Origin: Candidatus Vampirococcus lugosii
GTDB taxonomy: Bacteria > Patescibacteriota > Gracilibacteria > Absconditabacterales > Absconditicoccaceae
DNA: 7,314 nt
Assembly (NCBI RefSeq): GCF_018420025.1
Contig: NZ_JAEDAM010000050.1
Span: 1 to 7,314, forward strand
Direction: 5' to 3'
A model generated the notes under the pieces. That model saw nothing but the letters and a program-made list of their open reading frames with translations, was not told the DNA's origin and searched no databases. Of the stretch, positions 1 to 7,314 are shown piece by piece. The stretch's first letter is position 1. Every line of letters begins with the position of its first letter. The position numbers and the translations under genes are program-made.

Positions 1-295
1 GAGTGACATAAGTTTTTCAATTATATTTGCGAGTACTTTTTTTAATAAACATATTATAATTATTACCACTTAAAATAATAAAAGATAAAAAATAATATAT
101 TTCATTATAATGAAAAAAAGTACAATTTCAAGAGAAAATACAATAATAATCGCCACTACAAAACTAGCTATTTTTTGTTTACAAAGATGGGTTTAAACTT
201 TCTAGTACAATTAAATCTATATTAGATTGAAAATAAAATAAAAATCTATATAATATATATATATATTTTATATAATTAAATATTAATTAAATTAA

Positions 296-622
296 ATGGC
301 AAGAACTAATAAAAAATGAATTGCTGCAAAGAAAGCACAGCTTGCAAAACAAGCTGGTAGATTGAAATGACAAAAAAGATTTAATTATCCCAAAAGAAAT
401 TTATCAATAGAATTAGCAAAAGAATTATCTGTTGTATGAGCAAAAATGAATCCAGCAGGTAGAGAATACAATTGGTTTTTGAGAGGTAGGAAAATATGTT
501 GGGAAACATGACTTAGAGTTGATCCAGATGGTTATAGATTAGTAAGATTACCAAGTGGTTGATTAGAATTTGTTGAAGTACCAGTTTCTGGTTGGGTAAG
601 AAAAAAACTTAGAAAAAGATAA
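296..622 (+). CDS. hypothetical small basic (Lys/Arg-rich) protein, 108 aa under table 25
   Basis: ATG at 296 and TAA at 620-622. The frame stays open only if five in-frame TGA codons (317, 368, 437, 509, 560) are sense. Translation: MARTNKKGIAAKKAQLAKQAGRLKGQKRFNYPKRNLSIELAKELSVVGAKMNPAGREYNWFLRGRKICWETGLRVDPDGYRLVRLPSGGLEFVEVPVSGWVRKKLRKR. I recognise no family. A 109-codon frame free of TAA/TAG is unlikely by chance at this AT content. It is co-directional with aspS and ends 29 nt upstream of it. Confidence 0.55.
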
Positions 623-651
623 ATTTTTAATTTTATAATTAATTTTAAATA

Positions 652-2478
652 ATGTTTAGAACTCATAAATCTTGAGAAATAGATGAAGGTTTTGTTGGAC
701 AAAAAATAACTCTTGCAGGTTGGGTAAATTCTGCTAGAGATCATTGATGAGTTATTTTTATTGATATTAGAGATAGATTTTGAATAACTCAAGTAAAAGC
801 TGATCCTGATACAGTTTCAAATGAAGTTTTGCAAGTTGCTCATTCATTAAAAGATGAATTTGTGATACAAGTTATTTGATTAGTTAGTAAAAGACCAGAT
901 TGAACATATAATCCAAATATTACTACTTGAAAAATAGAGTTAATACCAGATGAAATAAAAATTTTATCTAAATCGGATGTATTGCCTTTTCAAGTTTCTG
1001 AACAGAGTAATGTTGGTGAAGAAATTAGAATGAAATATCGTTATTTGGATTTGAGAAGAGAAAATATGAAAGATAATATTATTACAAGACATAATATGAC
1101 AAAAAAAATATTTGATTATCTTGTAGATAATGATTTTTTGTATATAGAAACTCCTTCTTTGATAAAAAATACTCCTGAATGAGCTAGAGAATATATTGTT
1201 CCTAGTAGAAATAATCCTGGTGAAGCTTATGTTTTGCCTCAATCTCCACAACAACTAAAACAAATGTTGATGTTAAGTTGATTTGATAGATATTTTCAGA
1301 TAGCTAGATGTTTTCGTGATGAAGACTTGAGATGAGATAGACAACCAGAATTTACTCAAATAGATATAGAATTAAGTTTTGCTGAACAAAATGATATTAT
1401 AGATATAATATCTAATCTTTTTGGAGAATTAACAAAAGAATTATTTGATAATAAATTAATAAATGATGAAATTCCTATAATATCTTGGGAAGATGTTATG
1501 AACAGATATTGAATTGATAAACCAGAATTGAGAACTAAAGAAATGCAAATAATAGATATATCAGATATAGCATCTAAATCAGATCTTAAAGTTTTTGGTG
1601 ATGTTGTAAATAAATGATGAGTAATAAAATCTATGGTGGTAGATTCTATTTTTACTAGAAGTCAAATAGATAAATATACTTCTTTACTACAAGAAAAATG
1701 AGCTAAATGATTGGCATATATTATTTGGGATGAAGAATGACCAAAATCACCTATTTTGAAATTTTTTTCTGATGATTTACAAAAAGAATTATTTGAAAAA
1801 TTATGATTATCAAAATGAAAAACAGCTTTTTTTCAAGCAACAGATTGGCTTTTAGCAAATGAATATTTATGATATTTAAGAACAATACTTATTAGAGACT
1901 TAGAACTTACTAAATGAAAAGAAAATGAACTTAATTTTGCTTGGATAGTTGATTTTCCTATGTTTGAAATTGATGAAGAAACTTGAAAATTTGCAAGTAT
2001 GCATCATCCTTTTACTAAACCAAAAGAAGAATTTGTACCTTTCCTTAAAGAAATATGACAAAAATTGAAATTATGAAATAAATTAACTGAAGAAGAAAAA
2101 AAGCAAGTCTTGAATGTAAAAGCTGATGCTTATGATTTAACACTTAATGGTTATGAAATAGCAGGTGGTAGTGTGAGAATATATGATCAAGAATTACAAG
2201 AGACAATATTTTATATATTGTGAATGAATGAAACAGAAATTGAAGAAAGATTTGGACATATGACTCAAGCATTTAAATATTGAGTTCCTCCTCATGCAGG
2301 TATAGCTATATGATTTGATAGAGTAGTTATGATTTATCAAAATATGCCAAATATAAGAGAAGTAATACCTTTTCCAAAAACTCAAAAATGAGAAGATTTA
2401 TTGCTAAATTCTCCTTCTCAAATTGATGATAAATTATTAAAAGAATTATGATTACAAGTTAAAAGAAAAAATAAATAA
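652..2478 (+). CDS. aspS: aspartate--tRNA ligase (bacterial-type AspRS, 608 aa) read with TGA=Gly
   Basis: ATG at 652 and TAA at 2476-2478, with no in-frame TAA/TAG and 28 in-frame TGA by hand count. Hallmark AspRS segments are present: [28 protein letters not shown] (GG = TGA TGA at 745-750), [14 protein letters not shown] (G = TGA at 1180), [44 protein letters not shown] (class II motif 2 region), RYGIDKPELR (TGA at 1510), and [12 protein letters not shown]...[20 protein letters not shown] (motif 3 region, TGA at 2281 and 2311). The length fits the bacterial type carrying the inserted GAD-like domain. Confidence 0.95.
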
Positions 2479-2542
2479 TAATTAAATTTGGGGATAAAAT
2501 AAAGTATAATTGATTTATCTTTTTATAATTTTCATAAAAAAT

Positions 2543-2854
2543 ATGATTAAATGAGTTTCTTTATTTGCAAATGTATGAATAGCAGAGTTTTATTTAAAAG
2601 AACTTTGAATTGATATTGTTGTTGCAAATGAATTATTACAAAAAAGATGTGATTTATATACTTATTTTTATCCTAATTCAAAAATAATTTGTTGAGATAT
2701 AACAAAAGATGAAATATATTATAAAATTTTGGAAAATGCTTTAATACAAAAATGTAATTTTGTTATAGCAACACCACCTTGTCAATGAATGAGTGTTGCA
2801 TGAAAAATGAACGAAGATGATCCAAGAAATAGTTTTAAATATGCCAAAATTTAA
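2543..2854 (+). pseudogene. truncated DNA (cytosine-5) methyltransferase, N-terminal fragment only (103 aa, motifs I-IV)
   Basis: ATG at 2543 and TAA at 2852-2854. Translation under table 25: MIKGVSLFANVGIAEFYLKELGIDIVVANELLQKRCDLYTYFYPNSKIICGDITKDEIYYKILENALIQKCNFVIATPPCQGMSVAGKMNEDDPRNSFKYAKI*. It contains an AdoMet-binding motif I-like LFANVGIAE, the catalytic PPCQ motif IV (TPPCQGMS) and the following DPRN. Full-length C5 MTases are roughly 300-500 aa. The QxRxR motif, target-recognition domain and GNAVP motif X are absent from every downstream frame. Confidence 0.75.
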
Positions 2855-2877
2855 TATAAAAATTGATTTTAAAGTTT

Positions 2878-3174
2878 ATGAAACTAAACACTTGAATAGA
2901 AAAATTAATTAAGATAAATTTTGATAGTTTTGCAAATTTACTTGTTTTAGAAAATATATGGATTAAAAAATTTAAATTACTTAAAATTGCAATAGAAAAA
3001 GGAAATAAAACATGGAAAAAAATTATTGAAAATAAAATAAAATTAGAAAAATTAGAAGAAGAAATGAATATAAATATTGATAATTTTAAAGATAAAATTG
3101 AAAAAATAAAAGTAAAAACTCCAGAAGTTAAAATGTCTTGGGAAAAAATAGAAAGTGAAATAAAGAAAATTTAA
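2878..3174 (+). CDS. hypothetical Lys/Glu-rich, coiled-coil-like protein (98 aa); possibly the decayed continuation of the upstream methyltransferase
   Basis: ATG at 2878 and TAA at 3172-3174, with one in-frame TGA (2893). The frame is open from 2860, which is long for this AT content. Translation: MKLNTGIEKLIKINFDSFANLLVLENIWIKKFKLLKIAIEKGNKTWKKIIENKIKLEKLEEEMNINIDNFKDKIEKIKVKTPEVKMSWEKIESEIKKI. LLVLENI weakly resembles C5-MTase motif VI (hhhhENV), and the rest is low-complexity. Confidence 0.35.
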
Positions 3175-3245
3175 TTTTTTTAGTTATTATTTATTTTATT
3201 TATTGCTATATAATATATATTTTATAAATTAAATTAATTATACAA

Positions 3246-3935
3246 ATGAATTTTTTTTCTGAATCTAATATACAAGAATTACAAGAAATGTTTTGGAAAA
3301 ATTTTGAAAAATCTTTATTAGATTTGAAAAATAATGAACATATATATATATGACTTAGTTGATGAACTTCATTAAATTATTTTTATGAAAAAATATTAAA
3401 AAATTTTAAAAATATTGAATTTGAAATAAGAAAAAAAATAATTTTTGTTTTTGTAGATGAAAGAATAGTTTCTTTAAATCATAAAGATAGTAATTATAAA
3501 CAAATAAAAGATTTTTTTTTATGAAAATTAATTGATCAAAATCTAATTAATCAAGATCAAATTATTTCAATAAATTATGATATAGAAAATATAGCTGATG
3601 ATTATTTTTCAAAAGTTCCTTATATAGATATATCTTTAATATGAGTTTGAGAAGATGGACATATTGCTTCACTTTTTCCAAAACATATTTTGTTGCAAAG
3701 TAAAGAAAAAAAATATTTATCAATAAATGATTCACCAAAAAAACCTTCTCACAGAATTACTATTTCTCCTGAAATGATAAAAGATATTAAATATTGATTT
3801 ATATTTTTTATGTGAGATGCTAAACAAAAAGCTTTAAATAATTTCTTTGATAATAATCTAATTTATAAAGATTGTCCTGCCAAATTAATAAATAATACTA
3901 AAAATGTATTTTTATTTACAGATTTGAAATTATAA
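3246..3935 (+). CDS. pgl: 6-phosphogluconolactonase (229 aa) read with TGA=Gly
   Basis: ATG at 3246 and TAA at 3933-3935, with 8 in-frame TGA. Family signatures are present: HIYIGLSGGTS (G at 3351, GG at 3360-3365, all TGA), IFVFVDERIV, LIGVGEDGHIASLFP (TGA at 3642 and 3648) and GFIFFMGDAKQKAL. The LSGG / DER / GxGxDGHxASLFP combination points to Pgl rather than NagB, which has GxGxDGHIAFNEP. Confidence 0.85.
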
Positions 3936-3965
3936 TATTTTAATTATATAAATTGATAATTTAAT

Positions 3966-5454
3966 ATGCTATTTGATATGGTAGAAGAGTATGATAAACA
4001 AAAAATGGATTTTCTTATAAATCTACGGGAAAAGTCTATAGAAAAATTAGTTACTGTTCAAGATAGCAAAAAAATTATTTCTTTTTTAAATAGGGCTTGA
4101 ATAATTTGAATAGATGAAAAAAAACAAATAGTTTATATATGAGTTCCAAACGAATTTGTATTATCTCAAGCAAAAAAATTTTTTAAAAAACATTTTGATA
4201 ATGTTATCAATGAAATATATAATAATAGTTATAAAGTTGATTTTATTGTATACTGAAAATTTCAAACTTGAAAACATAAACTGCAAAAAGATATAAAAAA
4301 AATATTAAATATAAAAAAAAATTGAATCAGATTTTCCCAAAACTATAGATAATAATACAAAAGAAGTTTTAAAAAATAATTTTGGTATATTATTTGATCC
4401 TAGATATAGATTTGATAATTTTATAGTAGGATGAAGTAATCAACTTGCATATTCTGCATCTTTTTCTATTGCTGAAAATCCTGGTAAAGTATATAATCCA
4501 TTTTTTATATATTGAAATGTATGACTTGGTAAAACACATTTATTACAATCAATTTGAAATTATACTATATCAAATTTTAAAGATAAAGTAGTTGTATATT
4601 TGCCTACTAGTAAATTAATTGATGAAATAGTTGAAAATATTAGAAAAAATACTATTAATAATTTAACAAAAAAATTGGATGAAGTAGATGTTTTAATATT
4701 AGATGATATTCAATTTTTGGCAGGAAAAGATAAAACTCAAGAAATCTTTCATAATATATTTAATGATTTTTATTCCAAAAAAAAGCAAATAGTTTTATCT
4801 TCTGATCGTCCTCCAAAAGAACTTGATTTGTTGGAAGCAAGACTTAGAAGTAGATTTTGAATTTGATTAGTAACTGATATAAAAAAACCAGACTTTGAAA
4901 CAAGAATGGCTATAATTAACTCAAAATTGAGAGAAAAATCTGAATATTTGGAATATGAATATATAGAAATAATTGCTAAATATGTAAAAGATAATGTAAG
5001 AGAAATTGAATGAGCTGTAAATATAATGTTAACTAGGAAAAATTTATTGTGACAAGATTTGACAGAAAAAGATATATATGATTGACTAGAAATATTGTGA
5101 TACAATGTATGAAAAGAAAGTTTACAAGATGCAAAAATTAAGGATGCTGATACTATGAATAATAAAAGTTATAAATCATTTGCTAAAATATTGGAATATA
5201 TAGCTAATTATTATAGTATATCTATCTCTGATATAAAATGAAATTCAAGAAAAAAAGAGGTTAGTGTAGCTAGACAAATGCTTATGTATATAGCAAAAAA
5301 ACATTATTGATGGACTTTGGAAAAAATTTGAACTTATTTTGGAGGTAAAAATCATGCCACTGTAATATATGCAATTAAAAATTTTGAAAAATTATTGAAA
5401 AGTAATACTACAATATACAATGATTATCATATAATAATACAAGATCTTGTATAA
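3966..5454 (+). CDS. dnaA: chromosomal replication initiator DnaA, interrupted as sequenced by a one-nucleotide frame change at an A9 run
   Basis: Segment 1 runs from ATG 3966 in one frame to TAA 4350-4352 and encodes DnaA domain I-like sequence (...KKQIVYIGVPNEFVLSQAKKFFKKHFDNVINEIY...). Segment 2 is in the +1 frame, open from 4315 to TAA 5452-5454. It encodes [55 protein letters not shown] (Walker A, G at 4513 and 4522 = TGA), VLILDDIQFLAGKDKTQEIFHNIFN (Walker B), [45 protein letters not shown] (TGA at 5011), and domain IV ARQMLMYIAKKHYGWTLEKIGTYFGGKNHATVIYA. Dropping one A from the 4313-4321 run joins both segments into a protein of about 495 aa. Frame 2 has no ATG/GTG/TTG before the P-loop; the first is TTG at 4600. 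Confidence 0.9.
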
Positions 5455-5457
5455 AAA

Positions 5458-5482
5458 AACCTACCGTAAATATCGGTAGGTT
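5458..5482. terminator. GC-rich hairpin, intrinsic-terminator-like, with its canonical T-tract on the minus strand
   Basis: The stem pairs AACCTACCG (5458-5466) with CGGTAGGTT (5474-5482), a 7-bp GC-containing core plus 2 A:T pairs, around the 7-nt loop TAAATAT. It starts 4 nt after the dnaA stop. On the plus strand it is preceded by A7 (5453-5459) and followed only by TT then A6. On the minus strand it is followed by T7, the classic rho-independent layout. It is the only such GC-rich hairpin I see in the window. Confidence 0.5.
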
Positions 5483-5689
5483 AAAAAATTGTATGAATAT
5501 AATTTATTTATAAGTTTTTACTTTTGAGTTGTAAGAAAGTTCCAAATAAAATTGGAACATAGGATCATTGAATTGCTGTATCAAAATGTTTAAACTTATC
5601 CAAAAATAAATCATAGTATAAATTGTCCTCATATTTATTACCAAAAGTTGTATAACTATAAAGATTTAATACATAAAATCAAGTTTAAA

Positions 5690-6781
5690 ATGAAAAATTT
5701 AATTTTTGATCAGGAAAAATTAGAAGAATTTAGAAAAAAAAATAAATTACAACCATTTAGAATTAAACAAATTTATCAAGAAATATTTAAAAATTCAAAT
5801 ATTGATTTTTGAAATTGTACAAGTTTATCAAAAGAATTAAGAGAAAGTTTAGATAAAAATTTTGAAATATTATCAATTAAAATTAAAGAAATAATTGAAT
5901 GATATGAATCTACAAAATTTTTATTTGAAACAAAAAATTCAAAAACTTTTGAATCTGTATTAATGTATCATTGGCATACAAAAAATAATTGAGATAAAAA
6001 AATAAATAGAATTACTTTATGTGTTTCTTCTCAAGTAGGTTGTGCAGTAGCTTGTATTTTTTGTGTTACAGGTAAACTTGGTTTTTTGGCAAATTTGCTT
6101 TGGGAGGAAATAATATGACAATTACTTTTCGCAAATAATTATATAAAAAATAAATTTTGAAAAAAAGATGATTGAACTTATCATAAAGTAAGAAATATTG
6201 TTTTTATGTGAATGTGAGAACCTTTATTAAATTATAATAATGTAAAAAAATCAATTGAAATAATGCTTGGTCAATGATATTGATTTAGTTTATCCAAAAG
6301 ACATATTACAATTTCTACATCTTGAATTATACCTTGAATACAAAAAATGATAGATGATAATATTGAATCTATGCTTGCTATATCTTTGCATGCACCAAAT
6401 CAAGAACTTAGAGAAAAATTAGTGCCTATATGAAAAAAATATAAATTAAATGAATTAATTTATATTCTTGATAATTATTATAAAAAAACAAAAAATAGAA
6501 TTTTTTATGAATATATAATGATAAAAGATATGAATGACCTTTCTAAAAATGCTATAGAACTTTCAAAATTATTGAAACATCAAAATTGTCATATAAATTT
6601 GATACCATATAATGAAAATCCAGCAATGCCAAATTTACAGGAAACTGAAACAAGTAGTATATACAAATTTAAAGAAATACTTGAAAATAATTGATTGACA
6701 GTTACCGTGAGAACTAATATGTGAAGGGAAGAAAAATCAGCTTGTGGACAATTATGATGGGAAAATATAGCTAAATGATAA
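5690..6781 (+). CDS. rlmN: 23S rRNA/tRNA adenine-C2 methyltransferase RlmN (radical SAM, 363 aa) read with TGA=Gly
   Basis: ATG at 5690 and TAA at 6779-6781, with about 17 in-frame TGA. Motifs: [11 protein letters not shown] (N-terminal RlmN domain), the radical-SAM cluster [22 protein letters not shown] (CxxxCxxC), NIVFMGMGEPLLN (both G = TGA at 6209 and 6215), [51 protein letters not shown] and SACGQLGW near the C-terminus. Confidence 0.92.
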
Positions 6782-6790
6782 ATTTATTTT

Positions 6791-7314
6791 TTATTTATCT
6801 AATTTTTTCTTCTTTTTTATTTTATATTTTTTCATTATTCTTTCTGATTCGTTATTTTTAATATTTTCTTTTTCATTTTTTTTATTTTTTGTTTTATTAG
6901 TTGTTTTTTCATTAACTTTAGTAAAAGTAATATTTCACGATTTATTTTTAATATTATCAATTTTATTTTTAATATCATCAGTTTTCTGTTGAGTTTTTTC
7001 TTTTACAGAATCAAATTTTTCTTTTGAATTATTTTTAGTATCATCAATTTTATTTTTAATATCATCAGTTTTTTGTTGAGTTTTTTCTTTTACAGAATTA
7101 AATTTTTCTTTTATATTATTTGTAGTATCAAAAAACTTTTCTTGAATATAAGTAAATTTTTCTTTTATAGATTCAAATTTTTCTTCTGCATTATTAGAAT
7201 TAGTTTTATTAGAATCATCTAAATTAGAATTAGTTTTATTAGAATCATCTAAATTAGAATTAGATTTATTAGAATCATCTAAATTAGAATTAGTTTTATT
7301 AGAATCATCTAAAT
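6791..7314 (-). CDS. hypothetical low-complexity repeat protein, C-terminal 173 aa (5' end lies beyond the window)
   Basis: The minus-strand frame is open from the window edge down to TAA at 6793-6791, with one in-frame TGA at 6937-6935. Translation: (N)LDDSNKTNSN LDDSNKSNSN LDDSNKTNSN LDDSNKTNSN NAEEKFESIKEKFTYIQEKFFDTTNNIKEKFNSVKEKTQQKTDDIKNKIDDTKNNSKEKFDSVKEKTQQKTDDIKNKIDNIKNKSGNITFTKVNEKTTNKTKNKKNEKENIKNNESERIMKKYKIKKKKKLDK*. The coding strand is purine-rich and the 174-codon frame has no TAA/TAG. The gene converges on rlmN with only 9 nt between the two stop codons. No family recognised. Confidence 0.7.
6941..7130 (-). repeat. 87-bp tandem repeat, about 2.2 copies, encoding 29-aa units (KEKFxSVKEKTQQKTDDIKNKIDxxKNxS)
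   Basis: By hand alignment, 6941-7027 and 7028-7114 differ at about 7 of 87 positions. A third copy starts at 7115 (ATTATTTGTAGTATCA) and then diverges. The period of 87 is 29 codons, so the repeat stays in frame in the minus-strand CDS. Confidence 0.85.
7193..7314 (-). repeat. 30-bp perfect tandem repeat, at least 4 copies, truncated by the window edge, encoding the decapeptide LDDSNKTNSN
   Basis: The unit ATTAGAATTAGTTTTATTAGAATCATCTAA occupies 7193-7222, 7223-7252, 7253-7282 and 7283-7312, then restarts at 7313. The third copy has a single substitution (TAGATTT instead of TAGTTTT), giving KSN instead of KTN. Each unit holds an internal 15-bp half-repeat (ATTAGAAT occurs twice). The repeat is in frame within the minus-strand CDS. 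Confidence 0.95.

Follow-up and report, generated by a model that had tools for sequence, protein, structure and literature searches.

UGA as a glycine codon and CGG as a probable tryptophan codon on a dnaA-carrying contig of Candidatus Vampirococcus lugosii

The 7,314-bp contig NZ_JAEDAM010000050.1 of Candidatus Vampirococcus lugosii (GC content 21.4%; this whole stretch, which we analyzed at full length, is called the window below) raises the question of which genetic code its genes are written in. UGA has been on record as a glycine codon in SR1 bacteria and Gracilibacteria since 2013, with Rinke et al. reportedly among the sources, and a preliminary description of the window, made from its letters, had proposed that UGA encodes glycine across positions 296–6781. 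Our results support this proposal: V. lugosii almost certainly uses the SR1/Gracilibacteria code (translation table 25), in which UGA specifies glycine and only UAA and UAG terminate. The code chosen decides every gene call of the contig: table 11 breaks the contig into fragments, table 4 puts tryptophan on catalytic glycines (e.g. those of the P-loop and of the radical-SAM GMGEP motif), and table 25 yields correct proteins, with the probable exception of one CGG codon.

With table 11 and the default threshold of at least 60 amino acids, the window contains six open reading frames (ORFs) of 63–111 amino acids. The preliminary description had the six short ORFs right but counted three of them as antisense, the actual number being four. 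When only TAA and TAG are taken as stops, plus-strand frames open at 296–622, 649–2478 (609 codons), 2510–2854, 2860–3174, 3228–3935, 3960–4352, 4315–5454 and 5594–6781. The long plus-strand frames do not open when TAG is made a sense codon in place of TGA, and making TAA a sense codon opens many frames, nearly all of them on the minus strand and with a maximum of 231 codons. Given the base composition, TAA or TAG would come up at a random codon with a probability of 0.085, and a stretch of 609 codons free of both has P=3e-24. Over their 2004 codons, the seven complete plus-strand genes have 84 TGA in frame and no TAA or TAG, and all seven stop at TAA; a partial minus-strand ORF has one further TGA, and the figure reached by hand had been about 85. 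In the loci of three relatives, 59 genes stop at TAA (53) or TAG (6), neither of which occurs in frame.

Pfam and NCBIfam assigned the products to AspRS, the N-terminus of DNA_methylase, Pgl, DnaA and RlmN. Four of the genes, all on the plus strand, carry most of the evidence given below: aspS (aspartate--tRNA ligase; 652–2478; 608 residues, 28 in-frame TGA; Pfam tRNA-synt_2, E=2.9e-98), pgl (6-phosphogluconolactonase; 3246–3935; 229 residues, 8 TGA), dnaA (3966–5454; 495 residues after one base of an A9 run is dropped, 19 TGA) and rlmN (dual-specificity RNA methyltransferase; 5690–6781; 363 residues, 17 TGA). The starts of the window genes were assigned, and agree with the genes called independently on another assembly, the Logan assembly of run SRR13241708 (L001). 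The preliminary description held that these four genes are intact once TGA is read as sense; they are indeed free of in-frame TAA and TAG, but dnaA is split across two frames in the contig. The frame in which its N-terminal part lies (from 3966) gives way at about 4319 to that of the C-terminal part (to 5454), and the two become continuous only when the A9 homopolymer at 4313–4321 (plus strand) is shortened by one A. The Logan assembly, which covers positions 160–6853 of the window at 99.94% identity, shows A8 instead and codes for an intact DnaA of 495 residues, and all close relatives have contiguous DnaA proteins of 488–528 residues. Because the V. lugosii genome was obtained from cells amplified by multiple displacement amplification or multiple annealing and looping-based amplification cycles (MDA/MALBAC; PMC8080830), the A9 run is likely a homopolymer error. 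The deposited dnaA coding sequence, a C-terminal stump of 284 amino acids that starts from TTG at 4600 and lacks the P-loop, can then be traced to this likely error, which amounts to a correction of the public record.

The amino acid inserted at UGA was identified by translating the window products with TGA as X and comparing them with references free of assumptions on the clade's code. For AspRS, these were 94 homologues containing 0.3–1.5% Trp and 4.7–8.3% Gly, entries named Gracilibacteria or Absconditabacteria being excluded. For DnaA, they were 78 uninterrupted standard-code ORFs from metagenomes, obtained from a metagenome scan with a DnaA alignment that yielded almost only standard-code DnaA and not recoded relatives. 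Tabulating the consensus opposite each TGA, as had been suggested in the preliminary description, gave a clear result for AspRS: glycine was the commonest residue at 22 of the 25 alignable TGA columns and tryptophan at none, against 14 glycine-topped columns among the 561 non-TGA columns (binomial P=4e-24). In a Codetta-style likelihood, glycine led the runner-up amino acid by 141 ln units. For DnaA, glycine topped 7 of the 17 TGA columns and tryptophan again none (P=4e-6), and glycine beat serine by 30 ln units. The glycine-topped columns include the P-loop glycines (77/78 and 78/78 references), RFxxG (78/78), RE(L/I)EG (77/78) and the IG of the C-terminal helix-turn-helix (65/78).

Solved structures tell the same story. 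Alignment of AspRS with the Pseudomonas aeruginosa and Escherichia coli enzymes puts TGA opposite the glycines of RDHGG (745/748), TPEGAR (1180), AGFDRY (1279), YGSDKP (1510), YGAPPH (2281) and GLDR (2311). In DnaA, compared with the Bacillus subtilis and Aquifex aeolicus structures, TGA corresponds to glycine in GxxGxGKT and ELEG, and occupies both leading P-loop glycines (4513/4522) as well as the glycine of NVREIEG (5011). RlmN has TGA on both glycines of the E. coli MMGMGEP motif (6209/6215) and on five more glycines, and the Thermotoga maritima and Mycobacterium smegmatis structures agree for Pgl, where TGA stands for the GG of LAGG (3360–3365) and for both glycines that lead GMGPDGH in Thermotoga (3642/3648). 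The TGA coordinates cited in the preliminary description are all right, including that at 2786, within the PPCQGMS motif of a C5 cytosine DNA methyltransferase fragment. For this last motif, the codon is where it was said to be, but the claim of an invariant glycine after PCQ is left without structural support, as no solved structure matched the fragment at E<=0.01.

The profile hidden Markov model (HMM) comparison of codes, also suggested there, favored glycine over tryptophan for all four families when curated equivalog models were used: 745.9 versus 656.3 bits for AspRS (NF001750), 397.5 versus 356.8 for DnaA (TIGR00362), 127.6 versus 94.9 for Pgl (TIGR01198, with a cut-off of 124.45 that only the glycine version exceeds) and 328.3 versus 297.2 for RlmN (TIGR00048, cut-off 290). 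Composition agrees: code 25 gives 5.8% Gly and 0.8% Trp, and GGN codons by themselves would supply 1.6% Gly. Finally, in close relatives translated with TGA as tryptophan and aligned to the window, the residues opposite its TGA codons are W in 290 cases and G in 138, and those opposite its GGN codons are G in 74 and W in 70, from which it follows that TGA and GGN exchange freely.

TGA is also the main glycine codon. The window has 84 TGA for 32 GGN, i.e. 72% TGA, and in the 21-kb loci of the three relatives (L122, L203 and L204; about 6000 codons each) the share reaches 80%, 83% and 95%. In the nearest relative (L204), with 350 TGA and 17 GGN in 6097 codons, GGN has nearly fallen out of use. 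With GGA and TGA synonymous, their first position would behave as a synonymous G/T site in a genome of 21% GC, and AT-biased mutation may thereby have driven TGA to become the main glycine codon.

That UGA encodes glycine in V. lugosii is real but already known, because the genome paper (Moreira et al. 2021; PMC8080830) states UGA=Gly and reports gene calling by Prodigal with table 25. The preliminary description had rightly called the reassignment not new. In a related lineage, for a BD1-5 bacterium, 97 peptides of the proteome were unique to a database built with UGA as glycine and 3 to one built with UGA as tryptophan (Hanke et al. 2014; PMC4032931). The window resembles table 25 in that UGA is sense and falls on conserved glycines, the stops are UAA and UAG, UGG is tryptophan, and the organism is a member of the Absconditabacteria, a clade with a tRNA(UCA) that has glycine acceptor-stem elements. 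There is no difference in kind, although TGA is here the principal glycine codon and not an "additional" one, and although one CGG, as described below, probably acts as tryptophan outside table 25. The placement of the organism, which the preliminary description had reached by inference, is borne out by the AspRS, DnaA and orf1 (296–622) products, which with TGA as glycine are identical to nr entries of Candidatus Vampirococcus lugosii; the next-best named matches are Candidatus Absconditicoccus praedator and metagenome-assembled genomes (MAGs) of Absconditabacteria. The scientific picture is left unchanged by these results, and the value of the analysis lies in annotation corrections and in the picture of codon usage in the clade.

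How UGA is read can be addressed in the clade. We scanned one genome per species for tRNA genes, with a pattern that combined the anticodon UCA with glycine acceptor-stem bases. Among the at least 120 matches listed, 87 carry one nearly invariant tRNA(UCA) of 74 nt: GCGGATATGATGTAATTGGTGTAGCATAGCAGACTTCAGCTCTGTTCGTACGGGTTCGAGTCCCGTTATCCGCT. All 87 genomes are low-GC and of SR1, Absconditabacterales or Gracilibacteria type, including RAAC1_SR1_1 and oral taxon HOT-345. As the pattern required the acceptor-stem bases, only the restriction to the clade and the near-identity of the tRNA count as results. ARAGORN showed that, in clade loci, this tRNA heads a conserved cluster with the order tRNA(UCA)-Tyr(GUA)-Ala(UGC)-Arg(UCU)-Glu(CUC)-infC-rpmI-rplT-Leu(UAA) (L005, L008, L036, L039, L049, L052, L081 and others). 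The base at position 37 of the clade tRNA(UCA) is G. Near dnaA, two relatives encode a release factor of the RF1 type, which has the PET and GGQ motifs but lacks SPF: the gene adjoins dnaA in A. praedator (L203, 8898–9971) and lies about 5 kb upstream of it in the nearest relative (L204, 4160–5230). Release factor 2 (RF2) is reported only from the two "Gracilibacteria" species without recoding (PMC8629427). According to the published mechanism, UGA would be read by a dedicated tRNA with anticodon UCA and the glycine identity elements G1-C72, C2-G71, G3-C70 and U73; RF2, the competitor for UGA, would be absent, and RF1 would handle UAA and UAG. We adopt this mechanism from the clade and the literature, not from the window.

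UCA-anticodon, cloverleaf, tRNA-Gly-like genes also occur outside the recoded clade among the at least 120 matches listed (L002, L009, L030, L056, L057, L077, L088 and L094), their carriers including an Anaerolineaceae MAG, Akkermansia, Gemmatimonadales, Streptococcus sp. LQJ-218, Thalassotalea, Parachlamydiales and an alphaproteobacterium. These genes may be natural opal suppressors or sequencing errors.

Several points weigh against the reading of UGA as glycine by such a tRNA. A tRNA scan of the window found no tRNA gene, and an Rfam scan was blank as well; V. lugosii is absent from the at least 120 tRNA(UCA) matches listed, and in the matches themselves the glycine acceptor-stem bases are present by construction of the pattern. 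The accessible part of the supplements to PMC8080830 mentions neither release factors nor tRNA-Gly. A minority of TGA columns vary: 3 in AspRS are led by Asn, Ala or His, and 10 in DnaA by Ser, Glu, Leu or Lys. The evidence for UGA=Gly is all computational, and the extension of the code to CGG, discussed now, rests on one codon of the window.

This codon, the sole CGG of the window (4026–4028, plus strand), is codon 21 of dnaA. The preliminary description considered that table 25 fixes every other call, which goes a little too far; at this CGG, which falls on a near-invariant tryptophan, table 25 is probably wrong. The arginine-box codons of the window comprise 62 AGA, 4 AGG, 3 CGT, 1 CGG and 0 CGA in 2004 codons (AGA 62/70, about 89%), and per about 6000 codons the relatives have 0–2 CGG and 1–5 CGA. 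Column 21 lies in a well anchored block, LW..(v/l)L..l, and is tryptophan in 74 of 77 standard-code DnaA proteins and arginine in none. Among 119 relatives from the clade, 65 have W at this position and 54 have "R", and no other residue occurs. Where the DNA can be read, "R" is CGG (V. lugosii and A. praedator), despite the predominance of AGA, and W is TGG: A. praedator (L203) has CGG at codon 21, the sole CGR codon of that gene, and the nearest relative (L204) has TGG. The same W/"R" alternation is seen at invariant tryptophan columns of AspRS and of the orf1 family, and NCBI table-25 entries show "R" at tryptophan sites encoded by CGG or CGA. Independently, Codetta predicted CGA/CGG→Trp for Absconditabacteria (Shulgina and Eddy 2021, eLife; PMC8629427), a clade for which the same work reported tRNA(CCG) and/or tRNA(UCG) bearing tryptophan identity (G73, no A20). 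No such tRNA is present in the window or in the tRNA-cluster loci examined, and the name Vampirococcus does not appear in the accessible text of the supplementary tables of PMC8629427. The reassignment of CGA and CGG in the clade was thus already predicted in 2021.

The window fits this extended Absconditabacteria code (UGA=Gly, CGA/CGG=Trp; PMC8629427) in its very low GC content, in its near-absence of CGA and CGG with AGA serving for arginine, and in the position of its lone CGG on a near-invariant tryptophan that alternates with TGG in relatives; the basis here is one codon and the clade-level W/"R" alternation. From these comparisons, CGG is quite likely read as tryptophan in V. lugosii, and CGA presumably is too. 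Table 25 would then probably be incomplete for this organism, with CGG mistranslated, and residue 21 of DnaA in the public records is probably Trp, not Arg.

It is also conceivable, though rather unlikely, that the code is exactly table 25, with CGG still meaning arginine and codon 21 of dnaA being a genuine Trp-to-Arg substitution. The window has a single CGG, and the deposited V. lugosii and A. praedator annotations give Arg at codon 21. Two other tryptophan-dominated columns of DnaA domain I hold Phe and Gln in V. lugosii, so that the domain tolerates the loss of Trp. Replacing Arg by Trp at position 21 leaves the TIGR00362 score unchanged, as the local alignment stops short of this residue. 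A substitution to arginine has nevertheless to contend with a column in which standard-code DnaA proteins never have arginine, with clade relatives that show only W or "R" there, with the recurrence of this alternation in two other families, with the use of CGG rather than the dominant AGA wherever the "R" can be traced to DNA, and with the Codetta prediction and its matching tRNAs.

If CGG is tryptophan, two shifts would coincide. We consider it an even question whether, in the V. lugosii lineage, glycine has nearly left the GGN box while CGG, and presumably CGA, became tryptophan codons. If so, this would be a natural case of a four-codon box drifting to disuse, and GenBank proteomes made with table 25, that of V. 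lugosii included, would show Arg for Trp at invariant sites such as DnaA W21.

Ambiguous decoding, with UGA mostly glycine but a stop at some gene ends, is very improbable. Two gene ends invite it. The rlmN gene finishes with AAA-TGA-TAA (6773–6781), in which a sense TGA (6776–6778) precedes the TAA stop, and the nr AspRS entry of V. lugosii (P0003, 453 amino acids) ends right before the TGA at 2389. However, P0003 also begins at an internal Met (Met126) and is linked to no contig, and AspRS homology continues for 28 residues beyond 2389. No gene needs a TGA terminator: TAA closes all seven complete genes of the window, and the 59 genes in the loci of the three relatives stop at TAA or TAG only.

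That UGA means tryptophan (table 4), the code of Mycoplasma, Spiroplasma and several insect endosymbionts, is effectively refuted. The window shares with the organisms that use table 4 (Mycoplasmatales, Entomoplasmatales, some insect endosymbionts) an AT-rich (GC 21%) reduced genome, a sense UGA and, presumably, the loss of RF2, and it opens equally under any table in which TGA is sense. Many public proteins of the clade moreover have W at TGA, e.g. P0001, the same AspRS from the Logan assembly: most public translations of the clade (P0001–P0019, P0121 and others) were made with TGA as tryptophan and as a result contain 4–7% Trp and 0.3–3% Gly, with catalytic glycines shown as W. By contrast, over the 42 alignable TGA columns of AspRS and DnaA pooled, glycine is top at 29 and tryptophan at 0, and the likelihood favors glycine over tryptophan by 175 ln units in AspRS and by 98 in DnaA. 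With tryptophan, the HMM scores of the four equivalog models are 31–90 bits lower, Pgl falls under its cut-off, and the Trp content would reach 5.0%. The conserved tryptophan columns hold TGG and not TGA: of the references, 89%, 45% and 98% have Trp in the columns where the TGG codons of AspRS lie. The statement of the preliminary description that TGG still encodes tryptophan thus holds, and the TGG at 721 and the adjacent TGA-TGG pairs at 5308–5313 and 6755–6760 were found in their places. The window therefore differs from table 4 in the amino acid, glycine and not tryptophan, and its decoding tRNA would be a tRNA-Gly derivative and not tRNA-Trp(UCA).

Least credible of all is that the genes are pseudogenes decayed under the standard code, with TGA codons as real accumulated stops: dnaA is frameshifted and the methyltransferase truncated, but the 84 in-frame TGA stand against 0 TAA or TAG, which are about 4 times likelier to arise (0.085 versus 0.020 per codon) and are plentiful in the remaining two frames, each of the four housekeeping proteins passes its equivalog HMM cut-off, the pattern is repeated over 19,000 codons of three relatives, and the frameshift is missing from the independent assembly.

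Of the remaining genes of the window, the first, orf1 (296–622, plus strand), is open only with TGA as sense; it has 5 in-frame TGA and a TAA stop, and encodes a basic protein of 108 amino acids. Its product is the deposited V. lugosii hypothetical protein P0241 (100% identity) and is 89% identical to that of the ORF upstream of aspS in one relative (L122). It has no Pfam or NCBIfam match, and its AlphaFold2 model is weak (predicted local distance difference test score, pLDDT, of 65; predicted template modeling score, pTM, of 0.37). Only 167 database matches were obtained, every named one of them within the clade. The orf1 product is more conserved than those of housekeeping genes, with 61–81% identity among the other genomes listed, compared with 53–72% for clade AspRS.

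Downstream of aspS, the C5 cytosine DNA methyltransferase fragment mentioned above (2543–2854, plus strand; 103 amino acids, 6 TGA; PF00145, E=1.4e-10) spans positions 2–88 of the 324 positions of the PF00145 profile, i.e. the first quarter only, and judging from this coverage the fragment is probably what remains of a gene. Downstream of it lies orf4 (2878–3174, plus strand), which encodes a Lys/Glu-rich protein of 98 amino acids with 1 TGA and was also gene-called in the Logan assembly; it has no significant family match in Pfam or NCBIfam and no homologue in the loci of the three relatives. This pair stands in for what relatives have between aspS and pgl or dnaA. The order pgl-dnaA-rlmN is also found in the nearest relative (L204). 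On the minus strand, a partial ORF (6791–7312) runs past the contig end; it encodes a Lys/Asn/Asp-rich repeat protein, with 173 codons open when TGA is sense, and 1 TGA. Its region (6791–7314) has two tandem repeats, one with a 30-bp unit (4.1 copies, 97% matches) and one with an 87-bp unit (2.2 copies, 93%).

A search for DnaA boxes gave 5 one-mismatch matches for 2.5 expected, a number reached in 16 of 200 shuffles; this is not significant, and we make no claim of an oriC. Just 3' of the dnaA stop lies a perfect 7-bp inverted repeat, CCTACCG...CGGTAGG (5460–5480), flanked by an A-run on the plus strand, so that any T-run is on the minus strand. Apart from the A9 site, the Logan assembly differs from the window at a TA-repeat (261–262; one mismatch and one extra base in the window) and at a C/T site in rlmN (6539).

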